Shown: positions 663-53,744, numbered from the stretch's first letter. The stretch: DNA of 53,744 bases from a virus (IMGVR_UViG_3300009507_000024:1-53744), one strand, 5' to 3'. Notes: generated from the sequence alone by a model not told the origin. Numbers and translations are program-made.

Positions 663-1163
663 TTATTTATCTTTATCGAGACCTTTAAGGCGCTCTAGTA
701 GGCTATTCCGGTCTGTGACAACATACCCTTCGCCTTCGATCATACCATCGCCTTGGGGCTTTAAGTCTTTGTCTTGTTTTTCTTTTTTAAGTTGTAGTTC
801 AACCATTTTAAGCTTTTTATCTAGTTTAGCAACTTTAGCATCTAAACTAGTTTTAAGCATTCCGCCTGCAACTTCAAAAACTCTACCGCTATAGCGACTT
901 TCGACATTCATACCTAAGTCCATTAAATCTTCGTATGCACTCATAGCTTTGTCTGCAACTTCATTTAACTCTTTATCGGCCATTTCGCCTAGGCCTTTGA
1001 CTTGAGGTAGTGCAGCGGTTATTTTGTCAAACTCTGCCATATCTCGCAGTGTTTCTGCTTGTTCAATTTCGTATTGTTTTTGTTCTTCTTCTTGTTGTTC
1101 TGCATTATCTATTAGTTCTTTAGACTCAGGCAAATTTAACAAGTCTTCTAATTTTCTAGTCAT
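663..1163 (-). CDS. Probable terminase small subunit (T4 gp16-like)
   Basis: Helical protein with 'SRYSGRVFEVAGGMLK', resembling the R-x-F/Y-E-V-A motif of T4-type gp16; next to the gp4 homolog. Confidence 0.5.
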   Translation of the reverse strand: MTRKLEDLLNLPESKELIDNAEQQEEEQKQYEIEQAETLRDMAEFDKITAALPQVKGLGEMADKELNEVADKAMSAYEDLMDLGMNVESRYSGRVFEVAGGMLKTSLDAKVAKLDKKLKMVELQLKKEKQDKDLKPQGDGMIEGEGYVVTDRNSLLERLKGLDKDK

Positions 1164-1192
1164 TTTAACTTTCCATTATATGCTACTATTAT

Positions 1193-1633
1193 TTATCGTC
1201 TTGTACCATTATGGAAAATATCATCTTCTGTAACAATTCTAAATGTTATTTTATTTTGCTTACACCATGCCCTAGCAGCTTCCCACTTGGCTTGATTTAT
1301 AATATAATGGGCTTGATTATGTTTTGATTTGCCCAACTTTTCTTTTACAGCTTGATTTTTAGGTTTTACTTCTATAAGTTCTACACGCTGACTGCCTTTT
1401 TGATCGTTATATACAATAAAGAAATCAGGCACATATATAGTTTGTTTGCCGCTTAACGGATTACGATACGGAATACGTATTGCTTCGCTTGCCCACTGTG
1501 CTATTGCAGGATGTTCGTCGCAGAATTTCATAAAAGTAAATTCCCATCCTGACCTATATGTAGGATGTTTTTTACCTACATATTTTTCTGGATTTTTTAA
1601 AGTAAATTTACCTGATGCATATTTTCGACTCAT
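1193..1633 (-). CDS. Head completion nuclease (T4 gp4-like, TnsA-type PD-(D/E)xK)
   Basis: Motifs G-K-F..KNPEKYVG, YRSGWE..FM.FCD, WASE.I.IPY, YVPDF, IEVKP, NQAKWEAA..WC, F.IVTE, characteristic of gp4. Confidence 0.9.
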   Translation of the reverse strand: MSRKYASGKFTLKNPEKYVGKKHPTYRSGWEFTFMKFCDEHPAIAQWASEAIRIPYRNPLSGKQTIYVPDFFIVYNDQKGSQRVELIEVKPKNQAVKEKLGKSKHNQAHYIINQAKWEAARAWCKQNKITFRIVTEDDIFHNGTRR

Positions 1634-10614: not shown

Positions 10615-12032
10615 TGCAACATTTTTACGATGGACAAATACGCAGATATATAACTCAGATGATTAGAATGATGAGTAACTTTCCTGTAAAAGATAGCAGT
10701 GGAAGTTTAAAACAAGTTCCTGTATTGTATGGCGATCTAACAAGGCAAGTTGCAAATATTATTAGAGAAAATTCAGAAAATAAGTTACCAAGTGCTCCTA
10801 GAATTAGTTTATATGTTACTGGACTAGAAATGGACAGAGACAGAATACAAGATCCTAGTTTTGTCCGAAAACAAAATGTTATTGAACGTGCATATGACGA
10901 AGACGGTAATGAATATTTGAATACTCAAGGTCGAAATTACACTGTAGAAAAAATGATGCCTACTCCTTATAAGCTAACAGTTAATGCTGATATATGGAGT
11001 TCTAATACAGATCAAAAGTTACAAATTTTAGAACAAATATTAATTTACTTTGATCCTAGTTTAGAAATACAAACTACTGATAACTATATCGATTGGGCAA
11101 GTTTAACTGTTGTTAATTTAGAAAATGTAAATTGGAGTAATAGAAGTGTTCCAATAGGTGTTGATTCAGAAATCGATATTGCCACGCTTACATTTAGCAC
11201 TCCAATATATCTAAGTCCTCCAGTTAAAGTTAAACGCTTGGGTGCAATAACAAATATCATTACAAGTATTTTCAATGAAGATACTGGAGATATCGATCTA
11301 GGCCTAGCAAGACCAGAATTAGAAAGATGGGACGATTATGCAGTTCCTGGACGTACAAGGAGCCCAGAAAAAGCAGCAACTACTAGCAATGATCAGCAAG
11401 CAAATGTTAATGACGGAATGTACGGTGTATATATCGAAGGCAATACAGCACAGATATACGGCAGAGGTGCGATAGGTACTGTAAATTGGAGAGATAATTT
11501 TTACAAATATCCAGGTACATATCAAGCAGGTATTAGCAGAATATATCTAACAGATCTAGATAATGATGCAACAGTTACTGGTACATTTACAATAAATGAA
11601 TTAAATGAAACTGTTATGTTAATTGACTGGGACACTGATAGTTTTCCTGATGACGATATCATATCCGGACCGAGTGGCGATAGAACAAGTATAGATTTTA
11701 TCATTGATCCTACAAAAAATAATCCTACAAATATTAAAACTGTAGGTGCTAGAATATTATTGTTAGAAGATGTAAGCAGTGACGAAGCAACACAATATCC
11801 AGAAGCGTGGAAAAACAACGACGGTAGTGGATTGATTGCTAATGCAAATGATATTGTTGAATGGGATGGTACAAAATGGGTTGTAATTTTTGACTCTCAA
11901 AATACCACATCTACAACATATATAACAAATCTTACTACCGGAAAACAATATAAGTTTAGCAATAGTGAGTGGTTACTAAGTGTTGAAGGTGAATATCCAG
12001 TTGGCACATGGAGACTCGACCTCTACGGCTAA
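10614..12032 (+). CDS. Tail sheath stabiliser / tail terminator (gp15-like) with C-terminal extension
   Basis: HFYDGQIRRY, VPVLYG, PRIS, MPTPY.L, QILEQIL.YF.P; TAATG coupling to gp14. Confidence 0.85.
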   Translation: MQHFYDGQIRRYITQMIRMMSNFPVKDSSGSLKQVPVLYGDLTRQVANIIRENSENKLPSAPRISLYVTGLEMDRDRIQDPSFVRKQNVIERAYDEDGNEYLNTQGRNYTVEKMMPTPYKLTVNADIWSSNTDQKLQILEQILIYFDPSLEIQTTDNYIDWASLTVVNLENVNWSNRSVPIGVDSEIDIATLTFSTPIYLSPPVKVKRLGAITNIITSIFNEDTGDIDLGLARPELERWDDYAVPGRTRSPEKAATTSNDQQANVNDGMYGVYIEGNTAQIYGRGAIGTVNWRDNFYKYPGTYQAGISRIYLTDLDNDATVTGTFTINELNETVMLIDWDTDSFPDDDIISGPSGDRTSIDFIIDPTKNNPTNIKTVGARILLLEDVSSDEATQYPEAWKNNDGSGLIANANDIVEWDGTKWVVIFDSQNTTSTTYITNLTTGKQYKFSNSEWLLSVEGEYPVGTWRLDLYG

Positions 12033-21377: not shown

Positions 21378-23003
21378 CTACAATAATTTATTTTCATCTA
21401 CAAAATATAAGTGATTTAACTCACTGTTATTTAATACTTCTAATGCTTGTAATTTTGTTTGCACCAACGGCTGTCCTGCTAGATTAAAACTAGTATTAAG
21501 TAACATCGGACAGCCTGTTAATTTATAAAATTCTTGTAATAAATCATATAAAAATCCATTATTTACTGTTTGTATTCTGCATGTTGAATCTACATGTACT
21601 ATACCAGGAACCATATTTAAAGTATGAGGTTTAGCATTGAAATTTATAGTCATGTATTCTGATTTCTGATATCCCAATGTATCAAAATATTCTTCAAAAT
21701 ATTCTTCTAATATTACGCCTGCAAATGGCCTATACCATTCTCTATTTTTAATTCTATTAACTATTTCTTTAGTGTCAGCATTTCTAGGATCAAACAATAT
21801 CGATCTATGTCCTAAAGCCCTTGGACCTGCTTCTGGACTACCGTTAAAAACAGCTAAAGATTTTTTATTAATTAGTATATCACATAGCTCTTTTATATTT
21901 GTTGTACTTCCCTTATTTACTACAGTGTCATTGTAGTAATGATAAAAATTGTTATCAACACCTTCTACCCAAGTATTAGTGTTTTCATATTGTTTTAATA
22001 TAGTAGCACCTAAACTTATTCCTGTATCGTCAGCATTAGGTTCAAAATAGAAATTTACATCAGGTAAATTTTTAATATAGAAATTATTAGCTACTACATT
22101 TAACCCGTATCCTCCTACTATACATACATTTTTTACACCAGTCTCATTAACATATTTTTTTATCAACGATAACATTTCATTTTGAGTTTCTACTTGTACT
22201 TGTTTAGCTTTATCAGCATAGTACATGTAGTTATTTTCATTAACATCATCAGTGATGTAATTTATACTATCGGAAAAAGTTACTCCTAACTCATTTCCAA
22301 TATAGCCAGTAAATTTTTCACTAATAGGCATATTATCAACAAATAAGTTTTCAAAATTATCTTTTGTGCTATACGAAGATAATCCCATAGTTTTACCATT
22401 TTCTAAAGGATGTTGTCCTATTAGTGTAGTTGCAGCTTCATATACTTTAACAACCGAATACTCACTATCACAAACTACTTTGCAGTCATAATATTCCTGT
22501 ATATTATTCTTAATAATATGTTTTTGATTTGTTGGACCTGTTATAAAAAAGTTTTTTTGTAAATGATTAATACTATCTTTATTAACTCTATACACGCTTT
22601 CACATTCTCTTGCAACATCGTGACCATCTATATAAAAAGACGAGCCGTTTCTATCAACAACAAACACTAATGCTTCATCAAAGTTACTATTTGAATATGC
22701 TAAAGCCATATGACAATCATGATGTTTTAAATCAGAATAATTTTCCATTCTTTTATCAAAAATTTTATTAATATACATTGATAAAATACCTTCAACATCA
22801 TGTTGAGAATTTGAAGGAGTGCAATAAAGGACATGATCTATGTGTTTTGTGTTAAGAGACCGAAACAACTCTAAAGATTTAAAAGGTACTTGATCTCTTT
22901 TTACACCAGTAAGGCGTTCTTCCTTACAAAAGAACTCTATCTTTCCGTTGTCAATACAACATACTGACGAATCGTGTGCAACAGAAAATGCAAGTATTCT
23001 CAT
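21378..23003 (-). CDS. O-carbamoyltransferase (NodU/CmcH/TobZ family), copy 2
   Basis: HDSS, EERLT..K, HHDCH, GKTMGLSSY, GGYGLNVVAN, EAGPRALGHRSI, IKNREWYRPFA, HVDSTCRIQTV, LNTSFNLAG. Confidence 0.92.
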   Translation of the reverse strand: MRILAFSVAHDSSVCCIDNGKIEFFCKEERLTGVKRDQVPFKSLELFRSLNTKHIDHVLYCTPSNSQHDVEGILSMYINKIFDKRMENYSDLKHHDCHMALAYSNSNFDEALVFVVDRNGSSFYIDGHDVARECESVYRVNKDSINHLQKNFFITGPTNQKHIIKNNIQEYYDCKVVCDSEYSVVKVYEAATTLIGQHPLENGKTMGLSSYSTKDNFENLFVDNMPISEKFTGYIGNELGVTFSDSINYITDDVNENNYMYYADKAKQVQVETQNEMLSLIKKYVNETGVKNVCIVGGYGLNVVANNFYIKNLPDVNFYFEPNADDTGISLGATILKQYENTNTWVEGVDNNFYHYYNDTVVNKGSTTNIKELCDILINKKSLAVFNGSPEAGPRALGHRSILFDPRNADTKEIVNRIKNREWYRPFAGVILEEYFEEYFDTLGYQKSEYMTINFNAKPHTLNMVPGIVHVDSTCRIQTVNNGFLYDLLQEFYKLTGCPMLLNTSFNLAGQPLVQTKLQALEVLNNSELNHLYFVDENKLL

Positions 23004-24863
23004 TTACTTTTCCTGATTTTTTATATAAATTAGTTTTTTATATTCAGGAAGATACAAGTATTCAATATCACTCTTATCTAGTGTATGAAAGGCGTCTTCA
23101 AGTGTTTCCACTAAAGGATCTCCTCCGAGATTAAAACTAGTATTAAAAATAATAGGGCATCCTGTTTTTTCATAAAATGCCTTTATCAACTTATAATAGT
23201 TTGGATTTTCATCTTCTGTAACAGTTTGAATCCGGCAAGTTCCATCAACATGAATGATACTAGGAATTTTTTCTTGTATTCCAGGTTGGCAATTTACAGC
23301 ATACATCATATGAGGAGTCTCGTCTATACCTCTTAGATCGAACCATTCATGTACATGTTCTTTAAGAATTGATCCTGCAAAAGGCCTAAAGTATTCTCTC
23401 TTCTTAACTGTATTAACAAAATCTTTCCCATTTGGATCTGTTGGATCATACATAATACTTCTATTACCTAAAGCTCTCGGACCATTTTCACATCTTCCTT
23501 GGAATATAGTTACAATATTCTTGTCAGTTATTAAATCTACAATTTCCGAATCTGTAATGTCATTAGTAACTGTTGCGTTATATTTCGAACCTAAGATATC
23601 GAAATCAGAGTCTAAATAATTATACTCTGGTCCCAAGTATAATGTAGAATCTAGATTTTCAACATTTCCAGTACTTAAATAATACGCCCAATATGCAGCG
23701 CCTAATGCTGTGCCCGCATCATTTGATATAGGTTCGATATACAGTTCTATGCCTTCATCTTTTAGTTCTTCTAAATAATGATAGTTAGCAACACAATTTA
23801 ATCCATAGCCACCAGTAATTACAACTTTTTTATTTCCAGTCATTTCTACTGATTTTCTAATCATATCTAAAACAGCATCTTGTGATTGTGTTTGACAAGC
23901 ATATGCAATATCTTTTGATATTGAATAATCGTAGGTTTTCTTTCCTTCTGCATACTCTTCATGGTTTATATTTTTATCTATATAAAGCTCTTCGTTTAGA
24001 GATGCTCCATTTGGATATTTTGGAATAACCCAATTGTTATTAACTAACGGCCAATGGGTAAAGTCTTTATCATAAAAGCTAGGAATATCTTTGTTTTCTT
24101 TACCGTAGGGAAATAATCCCATGGTCTTTCCTGCTTCAATACTTTGCCAGCCACAATACAATGTAGAAGCTTCATATGCTTTTACAGTTCCGGCTCGATT
24201 TGTAAGTAACGAAGTAAATTTTGCATTTGGTTCAAATTCTAACATATGTCCGAGAACAGTTGCATCTACAGTATCTAATATTCCTGTAATAGATTCTCGT
24301 GTTCCAATATGCTTGAATACAGTATGTATAACACCATCTGACTTAATATCACCTCTATATACAGACTCAACTTCGTAACCCACAAATTGTTCACCGCCCA
24401 TTGTAAGAGGTATAAATGTTCCTGCACCATCTACTACTAAAATTGTAGCATCTTCCCAGCCACTCCTTAATAGTCCGCACCATGCATGTAATTTATGATG
24501 CTCCATTGCAAAATCAAATACTTGACTATGATTTTGCGGAACACGACTATTTTCTGGTTCGTGTTTAATTAGCCCTAACTTTCGCAAAATTCCCATATAT
24601 GTGTTATCACCACACCATTCGAGATTGTTTGTAGGACCGTTTCTTCCGTCTAATGTTTGTGTATGAGCAAAGGCTACATAGTCTAGTTTATCAGTATAAT
24701 CTAAAATACGTTGTATCGCAGCAAAAGGTGCGCCGTCGTACTTGTATCTAGTAAAACGTTCTTCTTCTATGCTAAAAACTATTTTGCCATTTTTTAATAA
24801 ACAGACGCCGCCGTTGTGACCTCTAGTTATTCCAGCAATCCAAATATCTTTATTTTTTTCCAT
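23004..24863 (-). CDS. O-carbamoyltransferase (NodU/CmcH/TobZ family), copy 1
   Basis: EEERFTRYK, HHKLHA, VVDGAG, AGKTMGL.PYG, GGYGLNCVAN, DAGTALGAA, GPRALGNRSI, KKREYFRPFA, HVDGTCRIQTV, NTSFN. Confidence 0.94.
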   Translation of the reverse strand: MEKNKDIWIAGITRGHNGGVCLLKNGKIVFSIEEERFTRYKYDGAPFAAIQRILDYTDKLDYVAFAHTQTLDGRNGPTNNLEWCGDNTYMGILRKLGLIKHEPENSRVPQNHSQVFDFAMEHHKLHAWCGLLRSGWEDATILVVDGAGTFIPLTMGGEQFVGYEVESVYRGDIKSDGVIHTVFKHIGTRESITGILDTVDATVLGHMLEFEPNAKFTSLLTNRAGTVKAYEASTLYCGWQSIEAGKTMGLFPYGKENKDIPSFYDKDFTHWPLVNNNWVIPKYPNGASLNEELYIDKNINHEEYAEGKKTYDYSISKDIAYACQTQSQDAVLDMIRKSVEMTGNKKVVITGGYGLNCVANYHYLEELKDEGIELYIEPISNDAGTALGAAYWAYYLSTGNVENLDSTLYLGPEYNYLDSDFDILGSKYNATVTNDITDSEIVDLITDKNIVTIFQGRCENGPRALGNRSIMYDPTDPNGKDFVNTVKKREYFRPFAGSILKEHVHEWFDLRGIDETPHMMYAVNCQPGIQEKIPSIIHVDGTCRIQTVTEDENPNYYKLIKAFYEKTGCPIIFNTSFNLGGDPLVETLEDAFHTLDKSDIEYLYLPEYKKLIYIKNQEK

Positions 24864-28957: not shown

Positions 28958-31900
28958 TTATCTTAACATATAGTTAATTGCTAGTGGCAGTCCTGTAATA
29001 CCGCCGGTGAAATTTACTCTACTGTTTATATTTATCACTTGTCCTTCAACAGTAGTAATAACGTTACTACTTATGAAAACATCACCTGCTGTAATACTAT
29101 TAACGTTAAGCGATGCACCGCCGCCGCCAATTTGTGCTTCAATATAAGCTTTAATTGCACGTTGTGTAGGAACAACAGTATCTGAATTTGCAGTAAAGAA
29201 CGGGTCTGTACTAAATTCTGCAATACTTGCTGAGTTGCCGCCTAGTGTAACTTCACCTAGTGAAAGTTCTTGCAAACCTGCAATATTAAATGCTTCTGCG
29301 TTCAATGTTGCAACACCAGTTGATTGTTCCACACTAAAGACCGGACCAACTCTAAAGTTACCATCTTGGTCAGTAGCAGTAAAGAATACTCGTCCGCCGT
29401 CATTATCAACAGTTTCATTTGCTTGATTTGGTGCAATTAATGGTATTCCTGGATAGTTAGTAGTTGTAAATCCACCTGTGCCGATATCTAGGAAATCGTG
29501 TCCAGTAAGTCTTACTTGTGAGAATCTAATACGTATTGTTACATCTTCGGCATCTGCTGGACTATCTGGTATTGGCATTTCTGGAGATACTTGCAAGAAT
29601 GCTGTATATGAACCGTCATCTTCACCAATAAATGATATAGTATTAACTAGTTTGAAGATCTGATCCGGCAAGCTATCAAATATAACGTTAGAACCACTTA
29701 CTGGTCTTGTTGTAAGTCTTCTTACAGCAATAAAATCTCCTGATTGTAAGAAGTCTGCAAAGCCATTACTTCCTGCTGCATTAATAGATGCATTTGCTAG
29801 CTCAAACTGTGTTCCTCTACTATAGAAGCTAGGTTGTGCTAATGCGCCTTTACCAGTTCTTACAACAAATGTAACATCATAAATGTTACCCGGATCAACT
29901 ATACCACATCTCGGGTAGTATGCACTTGCAGGACTGCTAGGATAATTAGCACCTGGTTCAGTTAGTCTTACTTCGAACACTCTTGAACTTGCAACACCTG
30001 CTCTACCTTTTGCTCTAGCACCTACATATATCTTATGAGCGCCAGTAGTTGAGCCTGTTGGAATAGTTAAGAATGTTCCAGTTTTATTTGGATTACCAAA
30101 ACTAATTAAATCTAACGAAGGTGTTCCAGTTAAATCGGTTGCAGCATAAGTTTGCCAGTTATATCCGTCTTGTGTATAAGCAACAGTTTCAGCTGTAGTT
30201 GATGTCATTACAAATATACCATTACCAAAAGTAATATGTCTTGCAGTTAATGGCAGGGTAGTCTGTGTCCATGTAATACCATCTGACGATACTGCGCCTA
30301 CATTATTTGTACTAGCAATTGCTATAAACATATTTGCACCGTAAGTAATATCTACCCAAGTCTCATTAGATCCAGGTAGTGTAGCTGTAGTCCAGTTATT
30401 ACCGTTATCAATAGAATATGCAACATCATTAGTGCCGCTGCGTATAGCAACAAACTTTCCTGCTCCAAATGTTAGAGCATTATATCCAATTGATGGTAAA
30501 GTTCCGATACTAGACCAGTTTTGTCCGCCGTCTGAACTTCGAACTGCTTCGTTACCTGCTGCGTCAATTTTCAAGAAGTTGTTTGCACCAAATGCAATAC
30601 TTGGTGTTCCGGTTCCTCCTGGCATTGTTCCACTTGTCCAATTAATACCGTTTTGTGAATACACATAACTTGTATTTGCATCAGCAACAGCAACAATATA
30701 TTTTTGTTCTATTAGTGTAGAACCGTCGTCAATTGAGCCGCTTGCAATTTTATACCAGCCATTGCCGCCTGCTGGAGGCATTGTCATACTTGACCATGTT
30801 GTACCATCAGCACTTATGTTTGCTGCTGTTCCAGCACTTAGTGCAATCCATACACCAGTTTGTGCATCGCCTGATTGATCAAATGCAACAACTTCTCCGT
30901 TGTCGCCAACACTCGTTACTGTTAATATTAAATCGTTTGTAACATTCTGGCCACCTAGTGTTGAACCATTAATTGTAATAGTGTCAAGTCTGGCATATCC
31001 AGTGCCTTGTATAGTAGCAGGACCACCGTCATCTAGTGTTGCTGTAACAATATACTTACTACCTACTTTTTCAATATCAAACTGTGCGCCACTTCCTGAC
31101 CCAGATGTACTATCTTGTGTAACTGTAGCATAAGATGCATTTGTGATAAAGTATTCTGAATCTACCCAATCATTTGCACTATTAAACGATGCAGTAACAG
31201 CTGATCTCGGAGGAGCACTAAACAATACATTAGGTTCAATTTCATATGTTGTTGAAGCATTCGGAGCAACTGGATCTCTTCCTAGTGCAAATGTTTCCCA
31301 TCCTGCTTCAACAAGTACTGCTCTACCTGTTCCTGATCCTGCGCCTGTAGCTGTAAATAATTGTCCTACAAAGTTAGGTGTAGGGGCGCCAATAGCTGCC
31401 CAATCAGTAGTACCTACATATTCAATTAGATACTGGCTTGATCCACTAAAGCTTCCTGCATCAACAGTTTCTACTTCTCTAACAACTGTTGCTTGTTTAG
31501 TACCGGAATCATATGTATCAATAATGCCAAATTGTCCTGCTCCAGTGCCGCCTGTTAAAACAATTTTCATACCGATATATGCAGTAGAAATACTACCATC
31601 TGTGGCAGCAAGTGTAATTTGACTTGTAGTTCCCGACTGTGCTGTATTTTGTGCAACAGTATATCCTTCACCACCAGCCGTAGCAGCAGTACTATCGCCA
31701 CCTTCTTCAGTAACTCTTACTTCAAATACAGAACCATCTCTAAAATCAGTATCGTCATAAACAACTTCTTCGTTATCACCTGCACCAAATACTTCTGCTA
31801 ATGCTTCAGTGTATTCATTTCCAGCATGTGAATATTCAAATGCAAGAAGATTATTTTGGTCAGTTGAAACATTATTAATAACAGCATTATACTGTAATCT

Positions 31901-46425: not shown

Positions 46426-46448
46426 ATAGTATTTATCAATTTAAATGA

Positions 46449-50378: not shown

Positions 50379-50888
50379 TTATTTGTCGAAATTATGTATG
50401 ACTGTTATAAATTTATCAAACGGCACTGCTGTTCCAAATCTAATATACCAACCAGGTGCTTTTCCGTCTGGATTTTGCACAAGTGTGTAATTTGTATTAG
50501 GTAATTGGAAAACATTTTCTACAAATACTAAAATGTTTTGTTCTGCTGCCGGAATTGGAAAGTCTGTGTCTCCACTATTTAAAATTCCAAAGTCAGTTTC
50601 AATTGCGTCTCCAGGACCAAAAGTTTGTATTACAATACCAGGATCTTGATTAGGTTCTTTGAAGCGTATTTCTCTCCAAGCACCGTTTTGATATGCTTCT
50701 AATTGTTCGTCGTCAGTATTATATCTTACATATCCATTTACGGGATAGAAAGGACGTTCTGCTTCTGCACCTCTAGGCATTTGCACACCTGTGTTTGAGT
50801 ACATTATAATCTGATCATTTACATCGTATGATACGCCTCTGCCAGTTATACTTCTTGCATTTGTTGTTTGTCTTTTAATTAATCTCAT
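50379..50888 (-). CDS. Virion structural protein, 169 aa
   Basis: Start at MRLIKR (TAATG overlap with the upstream stop); PRG...ERP...G.VRYN....LEAY..G.W and ILVFVENVFQ.P...Y modules. Confidence 0.75.
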   Translation of the reverse strand: MRLIKRQTTNARSITGRGVSYDVNDQIIMYSNTGVQMPRGAEAERPFYPVNGYVRYNTDDEQLEAYQNGAWREIRFKEPNQDPGIVIQTFGPGDAIETDFGILNSGDTDFPIPAAEQNILVFVENVFQLPNTNYTLVQNPDGKAPGWYIRFGTAVPFDKFITVIHNFDK

Positions 50889-51265
50889 TACACTACCATC
50901 CAACTTGCTGTAGCACTTAGGTTAGTAGGAGATTCTCCTAACACATCAATCTTATCTCCTGATTCTAAAACAATTTTTTCTGAATCAAAAGTAAAAGTTT
51001 CTCCTGCAGGCAATTGTACAGCATTAATAATTTGATTTTTAGGGCCGCGAGCTTCGCCTCTTTTGATTATAAACAAATCAAATCCAGTAACACCGTCTTC
51101 TTCGTGACCAGGATTAGGTGTTGAGTTGTTGCAAACCATAATCGATGTTATTGCATATCTAACAGGCGGAACATCACTACTTGGATCCCATCCTACAATC
51201 GGATCTGGTACTTCTACTAAAGACGTAGAACCTAAAATATCTACTGCTTTGCTTGCTAATGCCAT
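50888..51265 (-). CDS. Small beta-rich virion protein (paralog family, copy 2)
   Basis: AITSIMVCN, FDL, L.AGETFTFDSEKIVL..GDKI, near-identical to the adjacent gene. Confidence 0.8.
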   Translation of the reverse strand: MALASKAVDILGSTSLVEVPDPIVGWDPSSDVPPVRYAITSIMVCNNSTPNPGHEEDGVTGFDLFIIKRGEARGPKNQIINAVQLPAGETFTFDSEKIVLESGDKIDVLGESPTNLSATASWMVV

Positions 51266-51636
51266 TATGTAATCTCCAAATAACTTACTAGTACAGACAA
51301 AGATGTATTTCCTAATAATGCACCCGGAGAAGCATCTTGCGGTGTTGCTATTGCGTATATCTTCTCACCTTCAGATAAAATAATTTTTTCTGAATCGAAA
51401 GTGAAAGTTTCGCCTGCTTGCAATTCTAAACCATTTATTACTCTATTAACGTCTGTAGCAGATGCGCCGTCTTGCAATAAATGTAAATCAAAGGAAGCTT
51501 TTCCTACTTGATCATCAGTTGGATCAACAGCAAAGGTATTGCAAATAATAATTGTCGTTATAGCCCAATTTTCACTAGAAGGTACAGTAACTAAATCTGT
51601 TCCGGTTGTTTCTATAAAGCTGCTTTTGATTGCCAT
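51265..51636 (-). CDS. Small beta-rich virion protein (paralog family, copy 1)
   Basis: AITTIIICN, FDL, L.AGETFTFDSEKIIL..GEKI; TAATG coupling to the next gene. Confidence 0.8.
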   Translation of the reverse strand: MAIKSSFIETTGTDLVTVPSSENWAITTIIICNTFAVDPTDDQVGKASFDLHLLQDGASATDVNRVINGLELQAGETFTFDSEKIILSEGEKIYAIATPQDASPGALLGNTSLSVLVSYLEIT

Positions 51637-51645
51637 TCTTTATCC

Positions 51646-52668
51646 TTAAAAAATCATACTATAAACAAGTGTTCTATTATTACTTATAATTTCATCTCTA
51701 ACAGTATCGTCATGAACGAAATATATTCCAGTGCCGCCTTGGCCTCTGTCAGCTATATAAAGTCTTGCTCCGTTAGTCGGAACAGTTGGCTGCAAACTTG
51801 GATCATCTAGTGTAGGCTGTTTGCTAATTTCTAATACATCTCTTACACTAACTGTACCAGTGCCTGGTGCGCTTAGAATAAGATCTTCGTTACTTGTAGT
51901 TGTTTCAATTCTTGTATCAAAAAATCTTAAATTATTTAATTCAATTTTGTCTGACTGAAATTCTGCAACTACAACATCATCAACTCCAATTTTAACTAAA
52001 CTAGGAAGTCCTGTTTCTTCTCTGTCCTGTGCTTCAACAAATGTCTTTGTTAATGTACCTTCTTCGATTCTATCTTGGAAAACACCTGCAAAGTAACTAT
52101 CAACATAATCAATAATAGATTTTGAATTAGGTATAGTGTCATCGTCTCGTGCTCCTAATGTAACATCGATACTATTAGCAACTGGATCGTCATAAAAGAA
52201 AACTTGTTGTTCATAATTGTATGCAGGATCAACTTTAACTGTATATAATCCACTATTATAAAGATGTATATTTTGACCTTTTGAATCGATATAGTTAGTA
52301 ACTAATCCAACACTAAACCTGCCACCGCCATTTTCTTCAGTAAGCTGAAACATTCCAGGAAGTTCGAACAATCTATCGGTCATGTTTTCATTATAAACAA
52401 ATTGAGAGTTACTAAATGAACCTCTATCAATTTCAATACCAGATGTGTTTAGTGTAATTCCAGCGCCTGATTCGCCGTCATTTAATACAAGAATATTATC
52501 ATCAACGGTAACTTCTGTAGAATTTACAGTAGTCGTAGTTCCTAGAACAGTTAAGTCGCCTGTAATAACAACTTCCCCTGTTTCTGTACCGGTATCTAAT
52601 GTAATTAATCCACCGTCTTGAACTTGTATTTTATAGTTACCGTATGGAATTCTTAAATATTTTGACAT
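51646..52668 (-). CDS. Fibre-like virion protein, 340 aa
   Basis: ITGDLTVLGTTTTVNST.V.V.DNI.VLN.GE.GAG....SGIEIDRG motif common in T4-like fibre proteins. Confidence 0.75.
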   Translation of the reverse strand: MSKYLRIPYGNYKIQVQDGGLITLDTGTETGEVVITGDLTVLGTTTTVNSTEVTVDDNILVLNDGESGAGITLNTSGIEIDRGSFSNSQFVYNENMTDRLFELPGMFQLTEENGGGRFSVGLVTNYIDSKGQNIHLYNSGLYTVKVDPAYNYEQQVFFYDDPVANSIDVTLGARDDDTIPNSKSIIDYVDSYFAGVFQDRIEEGTLTKTFVEAQDREETGLPSLVKIGVDDVVVAEFQSDKIELNNLRFFDTRIETTTSNEDLILSAPGTGTVSVRDVLEISKQPTLDDPSLQPTVPTNGARLYIADRGQGGTGIYFVHDDTVRDEIISNNRTLVYSMIF

Positions 52669-52684
52669 GCTTATATCCTAATAA

Positions 52685-52702
52685 TGGGGGTCTAAGCCCC
52701 CA
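52685..52702. other. GC hairpin between two late genes (weak terminator or processing stem)
   Basis: TGGGGG-TCTAAG-CCCCCA; only a weak U-tract on the minus strand. Confidence 0.5.
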
Positions 52703-52709
52703 CTAAACT

Positions 52710-53102
52710 TTAACTAATTGGTGTTAAAACAATGTAGTCATTAGACGAATCGTTTTCTAATGCCCATGTATATCTGTTGTCATTCCAATCAGTAGCAACA
52801 CGCTTTGTAATCTTTGCTAGATTAACACGCTCACCACCGTTTGTTGGATTCCATCCAAACAAACTCATTTCACCGTTTGATGCTGGTGTTCCTGAAACTA
52901 GTGTATATGGTAAAAATTTTGTGCTGTCTGCTAAATCACCAACTCTACAAGCTTGGAAAGTTCTTGCACCACGTTGTTTTAAAATAACACCGTCTGTTCT
53001 TAACGATCCGTCGTGTAGTTCGATACGCACACCTGTTGCAGCATCTACATATGTATTAATTGCATCTACACCTAATACATCTTTTCTTAATGGTCTTCCC
53101 AT
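52710..53102 (-). CDS. Hypothetical virion protein, 130 aa (MGRPLRK...)
   Basis: Start reassigned to ATG 53102, which has an AAGGAG SD; the longer ORF crosses a promoter and a structured leader. Confidence 0.75.
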   Translation of the reverse strand: MGRPLRKDVLGVDAINTYVDAATGVRIELHDGSLRTDGVILKQRGARTFQACRVGDLADSTKFLPYTLVSGTPASNGEMSLFGWNPTNGGERVNLAKITKRVATDWNDNRYTWALENDSSNDYIVLTPIS

Positions 53103-53109
53103 TTGTTTT

Positions 53110-53192
53110 CTCCTTTTTAGAAGTCCTATCCGGGTTCTAACCGGTACGCTGTGGGTACAGCATAAGTCTGCCTTGCAGCACACTATCTGACA
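53110..53192 (-). ncRNA. Candidate structured 5' leader RNA with H-type pseudoknot
   Basis: CUGC/GCAG hairpin; UAUGCUGU/ACAGCGUA hairpin; CCGG/CCGG stem whose loop UAGAA can pair with UUCUA just before the SD. Confidence 0.55.
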
Positions 53193-53220
53193 CATGTATT
53201 TATCAAATAATAAAAAAGTC

Positions 53221-53249
53221 AAAAAAATAGGCCCCGAAGGGCCTATTTT
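53221..53249 (-). terminator. Intrinsic terminator after the major capsid gene
   Basis: Minus strand AAAATAGGCCC-TTCG-GGGCCTATTTTTTT: cUUCGg tetraloop, as in T4 terminators. Confidence 0.9.
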
Positions 53250-53269
53250 AGTTTAGTCGTTAAACTATC

Positions 53270-53743
53270 TTATGAGAAGCTTACGTTGCCGCTTTCGATG
53301 CCAACGTTAGCTAAGTAATCAGCTGCGTTACCTAGTGACGAAGCAGTATTCGATAGCTCAACATATCCATAACGTGTCATGAACGAAACTGTTGGCTCGA
53401 ATGTGCCTGGATCTAGGACAACACCTGAACTCATTAGTGGGATATATGGGCAGTAGAACGCTGGTGCGTCTGACTCTGATGTACCTTTGTATCCAACTAG
53501 TACTGATGTTGCATCTCCTGCATATGTATCAACATATACTTTCATTGCATTGTTTAGAGTACCTACAAACTTAGTGTTTGTTGGTGCTTCAAATGTACCT
53601 TCTGTTGTACGTGCAAATGCTGAAGTTGTAGCACTTTGTAGAACTGTTAGGATTGCTGGAGATACAACCGCCCAGTTACCTGCGCCACGGCGTGTACGCT
53701 GTGCAATGCGGTTAGCTGCACGGTTAACTAGTACTGCAAGTGC
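53270..53743 (-). CDS. Major capsid protein (gp23-like), 3' portion; starts outside the window
   Basis: Frame open to the window edge: NRIAQRTRRGAGNW.VVSP, VGTL....KVYVD, VGYKG.SE.DA.AFYCPYIPL, DP.TFEP.VSFMTRYG. Confidence 0.95.
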   Translation of the reverse strand, partial: ALAVLVNRAANRIAQRTRRGAGNWAVVSPAILTVLQSATTSAFARTTEGTFEAPTNTKFVGTLNNAMKVYVDTYAGDATSVLVGYKGTSESDAPAFYCPYIPLMSSGVVLDPGTFEPTVSFMTRYGYVELSNTASSLGNAADYLANVGIESGNVSFS

Positions 53744-53744
53744 A

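Follow-up and report, generated by a model that had tools for sequence, protein, structure and literature searches.

The virus fragment IMGVR_UViG_3300009507_000024:1-53744, here called the window (the whole stretch analyzed, 53,744 nucleotides [nt] long), carries near one end, on the minus strand, a structured RNA leader directly in front of a gene for a 130-amino-acid (aa) protein that begins MGRPLRKD. This leader is almost certainly an already catalogued motif, the freshwater-2 RNA of Rfam (RF02980), whose function is unassigned, here placed ahead of a late gene in an uncultured giant T4-type phage. It belongs to the family, it has three hairpins that covary among relatives, it follows a T4-type late-promoter-like box, and copies of it are linked to genes for proteins with the same MGRP start (MGRP-type genes) beside a capsid gene. 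On what the leader does we are more tentative. Taking identity and mechanism together, we give somewhat less than an even chance to a freshwater-2 late leader that would keep its own translation start partly closed, a proposal based on comparison of sequences. The features discussed are listed in Table 1.

Identity of the leader

An Rfam scan placed a full-length RF02980 match on the minus strand with a score of 74.3 bits (gathering score, 49.9; E 3.4e-11), and RF02980 was the sole family above its cut-off in the window and in the record. The initial annotation had called the element a cis-regulatory RNA that it did not recognize; because the match is full-length and above the cut-off, the RNA is in fact a recognized one. 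Every string quoted in that annotation was found on the minus strand at 53178-53100, and its description of a structured leader of a late message was borne out; the leader is conserved, and a cis-regulatory role is probable. The Rfam type of RF02980 is Cis-reg, and its model contains three hairpins and no pseudoknot. The window copy scores over the full model, has the three hairpins, holds the Shine-Dalgarno sequence and AUG inside the model and lies directly upstream of a coding gene. It shares with the family the UUAUGC/GCGUA stem, the UAGAAC loop, AAGGAG and AUG. A spacer between hairpin 3 and the Shine-Dalgarno sequence is already present in the Rfam consensus, and no structural difference between the window copy and the model was found. 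What is added to the Rfam model here is the late-promoter box, the position after a giant-phage capsid gene and the candidate pairings of a hairpin loop with the start codon and of an inserted strand with the Shine-Dalgarno sequence.

We take freshwater-2 to come from a survey of 224 RNA motifs, a provenance that the survey's main text does not confirm, and we know of no organism that has been assigned to it. The word "freshwater" has 0 occurrences in the main text of that survey (PMC5737381), and a full-text literature search for "freshwater-2" gave no RNA paper, as judged by titles and the opening parts of abstracts.

Relatives of the leader

Ten viral contigs encoding relatives of the 130-aa protein were examined for the motif, and all ten carried freshwater-2 (five above the cut-off and five at 43.7 bits). 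Further copies were collected with three sequence patterns. The first, in which parts of hairpin 2 and the Shine-Dalgarno sequence were fixed, matched at least 120 viral stretches (127 instances, 115 of them real and 107 unique). The second, in which the Shine-Dalgarno sequence was left free together with the hairpin-3 loop and the partner suggested for that loop, matched at least 120 more (101 unique, 3 of them not the motif), and the third, for ATGGC starts, matched 58 stretches (34 unique). Pooling and filtering the matches listed gave 193 unique leaders, on which the copy counts below are based. An alignment of 149 distinct relatives with the window as its first row was compared with 500 shuffles and with controls in which the partner strand was slid; percentages of cells and counts of rows below refer to this alignment.

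The late-promoter box NATAAATA was found at most 70 nt upstream in 80 of the 107 unique relatives from the first pattern; 25 of the remaining 27 had NTAAATA one-letter variants and 2 were cut off by the end of the locus. A capsid gene lay upstream on the same strand within 1.5 kilobases (kb) in 131 of 178 copies. The proteins encoded downstream ranged from 125 to more than 400 aa, had the MGRP start in all 14 inspected, and were close enough to the window protein for tblastn at 1e-5 in 56 of 176 cases. In the window and about 190 relatives, freshwater-2 forms the 5' leader of late messages in uncultured T4-type giant phages, beside the capsid gene and before a large protein superfamily with no assigned function.

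The 193 unique copies fall into two groups. An insert with the consensus AUYGGAC-UYCU lengthens the spacer after hairpin 3 in 103 copies, the window included; the other 90 have no insert and no UUCUA strand, and their Shine-Dalgarno sequence follows hairpin 3 after 0-8 nt or so.

The three hairpins

The three hairpins proposed in the initial annotation (P1, P2 and P3) are real and conserved, with strong covariation in about 190 unique relatives. Pairing in P2 and P3 together reached 99.0% across the 149 distinct relatives, and their covariation was 0.490 as compared with 0.093 in shuffles (0/500 as high) and at most 0.048 with slid partners. All four pairs of the P3 stem vary on both sides. 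P2 has a single variable pair (G-C in 79 rows, U-A in 42 and A-U in 28), which is never unpaired; the other six of its seven pairs never vary, a constancy partly imposed by the search patterns. At the place of P1, 178 of 189 unique copies had a hairpin of at least 4 base pairs (bp), among which 137 sequences occurred, and the version in the window is of the weakest kind; some relatives lack P1 altogether. The fold of the whole leader was unremarkable (z = -1.45; 19/200 shuffles fold as well).

Candidate pairings at the translation start

Two additional pairings would hold the translation start partly closed. The first would be family-wide: the P2 loop CCCA (53155-53152) is complementary to UGGG at the start codon (53101-53098), and their pairing would form a long-range pseudoknot enclosing P3 and the Shine-Dalgarno sequence. 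At least four contiguous pairs between the P2 loop and the 4-mer at +1 were found in 64.2% of the 193 unique copies, as compared with at most 15.5% at all other offsets from -40 to +40 and 31% for shuffled loops. In the alignment, 84.6% of cells were paired (slid controls, at most 65.6%), and two-sided changes from C-G to G-C were seen in 8 cells, as compared with 1.0 +/- 0.9 in shuffles. Loops of the GCCA type occurred in 9 of 22 copies with an ATGGC start and in 0 of 171 with an ATGGG start (Fisher test, P = 6e-10, uncorrected for kinship). The putative contact between loop and start codon is thus position-specific, is accompanied by compensatory changes and can be called moderately supported.

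The second pairing would be confined to the long-spacer subfamily that includes the window. Here, the inserted CUUCU (53123-53119) would pair with AGGAG of the Shine-Dalgarno sequence (53114-53110) as an anti-Shine-Dalgarno hairpin. The minimum-energy fold from ViennaRNA contains this hairpin (-3.0 kcal/mol). Of 33 unique long-spacer copies, 29 kept all five pairs, as did 88 of 103 in the larger set, and 94.6% of cells were paired; the sole variable pair was U.G in 37 rows and C-G in 27. A pyrimidine strand (CUUCU or CUCCU) that lies 3-6 nt upstream and can pair with AGGAG recalls the anti-Shine-Dalgarno hairpins of bacterial leaders, such as RNA thermometers; here, the hairpin is restricted to the long-spacer subfamily, is weak and has a competing partner in the P3 loop. 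The CUUCU segment can have the P3 loop or AGGAG as its partner, never both at once, and its pairing with the P3 loop, if formed at all, would represent the open form of a small switch and not the core structure.

The two pairings were distributed unequally among clades. Pairing of the P2 loop with the start was present in 72 of 90 short-spacer copies, in 43 of 54 CUUCU copies and in 0 of 33 CUCCU copies; the CUCCU clade has a perfect anti-Shine-Dalgarno strand, which hints that the two pairings may substitute for each other. If both were true, freshwater-2 would be a widespread, phage-specific device that sets the amount or timing of a virion-associated protein, and a compact, testable example of translational gating.

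Several observations, however, weigh against a leader that closes its own start. For the loop-to-start pairing, the margin over shuffles is small (84.6% as compared with 82.4%), and the covariation tool cautions that related sequences can beat shuffles when no structure is present. At two of its four positions, pairing is lost in 38-39 of 149 rows, and 13 of the 22 ATGGC-start copies are uncompensated. The two-sided changes come from approximately three loop types and therefore represent few independent events. The start side of the pairing is also fixed by the conserved Met-Gly of the protein. The pairing is missing throughout the CUCCU clade, and the apparent trade-off with the anti-Shine-Dalgarno strand rests on that one clade. 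For the anti-Shine-Dalgarno hairpin, no two-sided change was found, pairing was not above that of shuffles (60/500 as high), and sliding the partner by +3 paired equally well (95.5%). The Shine-Dalgarno sequence was itself fixed by the first search pattern, a variant with CUACU (11 copies) weakens the hairpin, and the hairpin is weak in the window. Last, neither pairing, nor any other, explains the near-invariant P2 stem and the near-invariant P3 loop UAGAAC, which suggest that these parts probably form a recognition surface for a bound factor.

Alternative functions of the leader

Such a factor is central to the first alternative, in which the leader is a protein operator: the MGRP protein acting autogenously, or another phage or host factor, would read the P2 stem with its U.G pair and the UAGAAC loop and would block or trap the ribosome. 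We regard this as rather unlikely, and it could coexist with a leader that gates translation. It would account for conservation beyond structural need, namely the six invariant P2 pairs (with the reservation about search patterns given above) and the P3 loop, which contrast with P1 and the P3 stem, both fully variable. P3 lies 0-8 nt from the Shine-Dalgarno sequence in most short-spacer copies, and the motif travels with MGRP-type genes, including a tandem pair in which each gene has its own leader. The protein has a predicted SH3/Tudor/KOW-like barrel and basic motifs, but the structural matches are weak (Z at most 5.5, and no Foldseek match of the protein model to the Protein Data Bank [PDB] at E <= 0.001). 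A weaker viral structural match (E 0.1), named a possible surface protein, suggests instead that the protein is a virion part. In addition, the downstream proteins are very diverse, without matching changes in the RNA elements that would be recognized.

A combination of these ideas can be drawn, which we consider unlikely: in a large group of uncultured aquatic giant phages, a two-layer gate in which the P2 loop would lock the start, CUUCU of the long-spacer subfamily would toggle between the Shine-Dalgarno sequence (closed) and the P3 loop (open), and a factor, maybe the MGRP protein, would read UAGAAC in the manner of S15 on the rpsO leader. In the Escherichia coli rpsO leader, the start lies inside a pseudoknot that the protein could stabilize. 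If the leader does keep its own start partly closed, the likeness would be that of a hairpin loop paired with the translation start; there is no homology, and the gene here is not a ribosomal protein gene. Pairing with the P2 loop may be part of what keeps the Met-Gly start invariant; were the two-layer gate true, this would apply across a very diverse superfamily.

The structure proposed in the initial annotation was an H-type pseudoknot, with the P3 stem as the first helix and UAGAA:UUCUA as the second. That this is the functional structure, alone or as an open state that frees the Shine-Dalgarno sequence, we judge unlikely. The layout is present in the letters of the window and is sterically ordinary, but it is neither a feature of the family nor backed by covariation. 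The UUCUA partner is absent in 74-76 of the 149 aligned relatives, in which the P3 loop is equally invariant. In the fixed register, 77.4% of cells were paired as compared with a shuffle mean of 79.0% (479/500 shuffles as high), and covariation was 0.009 as compared with 0.013 in shuffles. Of its five pairs, two are broken in 34 and 39 of approximately 73-75 rows, and only 10 of 33 copies keep all five. UAGAA:UUCUA is also the weakest of the three candidate helices (duplex energy -1.7 kcal/mol, as compared with -2.4 and -4.1), and in the window alone shuffled spacers reach at least 5 bp with the P3 loop in 11.8% of trials.

The pseudoknot fares better when the register is free. At least four contiguous pairs between the P3 loop and the segment were found in 86 of 103 long-spacer copies, and in 82 of the 103 the segment pairs with the P3 loop and also with the Shine-Dalgarno sequence. 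Complementarity to the P3 loop peaks at -21 to -19 from the ATG (31-34% of copies, as compared with 5-8% for shuffled loops); beyond the UUCU segment, the scan for partners of this loop showed only a weak rise at +26 to +28. GAGAA, the only common variant of the loop (27 copies), is always accompanied by CUCCU, where GGAG:CUCC restores four pairs in a shifted register, and the table of loop U or G against segment U or C reads 55/7/0/27 (Fisher test, P = 1e-16, uncorrected for kinship). This joint change of loop and segment, however, probably happened only once in evolution. In six copies, UAGAA stands with CUCCU and there is no such rescue; these and 11 CUACU copies have only 3-4 pairs. Furthermore, the change from U to C in the segment breaks an A-U pair of the pseudoknot and retains the pair with the Shine-Dalgarno sequence, being the same change as the U.G/C-G alternation of the anti-Shine-Dalgarno hairpin. 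The CUUCU segment is at least as well explained as an anti-Shine-Dalgarno strand, and through the register-shifted rescue in one clade the H-type pseudoknot survives at most as a feature of a subfamily. This particular pseudoknot should not be regarded as established. Given the support for the contact between the P2 loop and the start codon, the underlying idea of a tertiary pairing that controls translation may nevertheless be right, with the helices wrong.

The likeness to the T4 gene 32 operator suggested in the initial annotation lies in the kind of element, a phage 5' leader for which an H-type pseudoknot and control of translation are proposed. In T4, the pseudoknot is found at the extreme 5' end, from which it nucleates cooperative binding by the single-stranded-DNA-binding protein along an unstructured tract. 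The pseudoknot proposed here differs in that it is without comparative support, and the 130-aa product matched no known family, so that nothing marks it as a single-stranded-DNA-binding protein like that of gene 32.

Several other pairings of the leader were rejected on visual inspection because they did not hold consistently among the relatives: the GGAC in the insert with the P2 loop, the same GGAC with GUCC in codons 2-3, and the P3 loop with either UCUA or GUUC at the beginning of the transcript. The GGA motifs in the insert (GGAC), in the Shine-Dalgarno sequence and in the GGAG loops could be sites of the CsrA type.

That the hairpins do no switching, and on a strongly expressed late message serve as a passive, cap-like 5' stabilizer or as a ribosome standby platform, is distinctly unlikely. 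The leader does open a late transcript, and its Shine-Dalgarno sequence and spacing are near ideal; its hairpins are simple and form no multistem junction, and P1 is absent from some relatives. A stabilizer would not need an invariant loop and stem sequence, however, and it leaves unaccounted for both the complementarity of loop and start with its compensatory changes and the inserted strand complementary to the Shine-Dalgarno sequence.

A small-molecule riboswitch with a pseudoknot near the Shine-Dalgarno sequence, of the preQ1 or SAM-II kind, is very improbable: for it stand the analogy drawn in the initial annotation, which for preQ1-II and SAM-II amounts to the general idea of pairing over the ribosome-binding site, and the Rfam type Cis-reg, whereas the structure consists of three plain hairpins, no riboswitch family was among the 13 Rfam matches at E <= 10 in 52500-53744 or above the cut-off in the window, and the downstream genes are those of phage proteins beside capsid and baseplate genes, not metabolic ones.

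The downstream gene and its product

Translation of the 130-aa protein starts at 53102, as originally annotated, and not at the TTG at 53222. The MGRPL start is invariant in 36 of 36 aligned homologues, and AAGGAG lies 7 nt upstream of the ATG; the promoter box lies downstream of the TTG, and relatives do not keep their spacer lengths to multiples of three.

The protein had 1027 homologues at E <= 0.001 but no Pfam or PHROG family, and no tblastn match at E <= 1e-3 in 50,697 phage records. Its AlphaFold2 model had a mean predicted local distance difference test score (pLDDT) of 79.9. The best VIA-align score (Z 5.5) was to Tudor/chromo/SH3 barrels, at a level that the tool calls common. The ESM Atlas returned unnamed viral clusters only (scores at most 0.82), and the nearest viral structures were uncharacterized giant-phage proteins, including proteins of a giant Agrobacterium phage.

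The superfamily linked to the leader has, besides the MGRP start, a motif like (I/V)(I/V)xQ(K/R)G(A/S)xx(F/Y), which is faintly similar to ribosomal protein bL27. In a profile search against PDB sequences, bL27 appeared weakly (E 1.3 over 35 residues); PF01016 (bL27) matched 1 of 36 members at E 0.027, and one homologue is named L27 by its source. Among the best 50 structural matches of the 130-aa protein, bL27 was not found.

Genomic context

All genes at this end of the window are on the minus strand, and the order along the gene strand is the 3' part of the capsid gene, a terminator, the late-promoter box, the leader and the 130-aa gene (Table 1). The capsid gene matched Pfam PF07068 (Gp23; E 1.3e-46) and PHROG 138 (major head protein; E 4.7e-43). 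The window has an estimated completeness of 15%, and the capsid gene resembles those of phages with records of mostly 310-470 kb; the window is therefore a piece of a giant phage.

Table 1. Features of the leader and its surroundings in the window
Feature	Position	Strand	Remarks
Major capsid protein gene, gp23-type, 3' part	53273..53743	-	Stop codon 53270-53272; gene extends beyond the window
Strong intrinsic terminator ending the capsid message	53224..53249	-	11-bp stem, UUCG loop, T run; terminator scan and sequence
T4-type late-promoter-like box GATAAATA	53197..53204	-	Among 13 minus-strand boxes
freshwater-2 RNA, Rfam RF02980	53100..53182	-	Full-length match, model positions 1-84 of 84
Hairpin P1, CUGC-AAG-GCAG	53168..53178	-	-3.5 kcal/mol; weakest and most variable of the three
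Hairpin P2, UAUGCUGU-ACCC-ACAGCGUA, i.e., UAUGCUG(U)-(U)ACCC(A)-CAGCGUA	53145..53164	-	-8.8 kcal/mol
Hairpin P3, CCGG-UUAGAAC-CCGG	53130..53144	-	-5.1 kcal/mol; loop UAGAAC nearly invariant family-wide
Long-spacer insert AUAGGAC-UUCUA	53118..53129	-	AUAGGAC 53129-53123, UUCUA 53122-53118
Shine-Dalgarno sequence AAGGAG	53110..53115	-	7 nt before ATG; conserved in the Rfam consensus
Start codon ATG and following GG	53098..53102	-	ATG 53102-53100; UGGG at 53101-53098 would pair with the P2 loop
Gene for 130-aa protein MGRPLRKD...	52710..53102	-	All-beta; SH3/Tudor-like barrel predicted for residues 24-83

Transcription probably starts approximately 6 nt downstream of the GATAAATA box, near 53191. 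Twelve of the 13 minus-strand NATAAATA boxes in the window have a downstream start codon, and the distance from box to ATG is 16-33 nt in 9 of these, as compared with 94 nt for the box of the leader, in agreement with the unusually long leader (approximately 90 nt) noticed at first. The other two long distances are 104 nt, from a box at 46437 (-) to a gene for a 1247-aa baseplate-wedge-like protein, and 86 nt, from a box at 29036 (-) to a 107-aa open reading frame. These two leaders folded no better than shuffles (z = 0.82 and -0.54, respectively) and matched no Rfam family.

The 130-aa gene had been described as the first gene of a fiber operon. Its position is roughly right: downstream lie baseplate-wedge and tail-fiber-like genes, and from 50300 to the 130-aa gene the terminator scan found no terminator-like site on the strand of the genes. 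However, these following genes carry late-promoter boxes of their own.

RNA data were available as contigs from four runs, a form that carries no information on 5' ends, strand or level. In one of them (X1), a 151-nt contig spans 53022-53172 with 0 differences; the leader sequence thus occurs in a metatranscriptome library. The X1 depth was 0.09 in the bin 53172-53213 and 0 in 53214-53255, values to which we give no weight. A diverging contig of the same run departs from the window at 53126, inside the leader, and continues with the GGAGAAC-loop form of hairpin 3, which indicates a second phage with the other leader subtype in the same sample.

Some single copies of the leader had particular surroundings. 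Locus L035 (+) has two freshwater-2 leaders (482-543 and 1664-1727) 1.2 kb apart, each before its own MGRP-type gene, so that leader and gene seem to duplicate as a unit. The frame behind the leader of L124 (-) (motif at 10857-10950) ends after seven codons (MGRPITD), and this copy may be orphaned or decayed; both it and the copy of L126 lack the UUCU strand. In four related viral contigs (L007-L010), an element at 1130-1334 (+) that resembles manA RNA (RF01745; 47.8-47.9 bits, below the gathering score of 55.2; E approximately 2e-9) lies approximately 100 nt upstream of the freshwater-2 leader.

Elsewhere in the window, two adjacent small paralogous genes at 50888-51636 (-), which encode proteins of 125 and 123 aa that resemble each other in their N- and C-terminal motifs and have neither a Pfam nor a PHROG family, come after a gene for a 340-aa structural protein. 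At 21381-24863 (-), adjacent genes for proteins of 541 and 619 aa match Nol-like carbamoyltransferases (PHROG 1601; E 2.8e-118 and 4.1e-159, respectively), and this pair is embedded in the structural-gene region of the phage.

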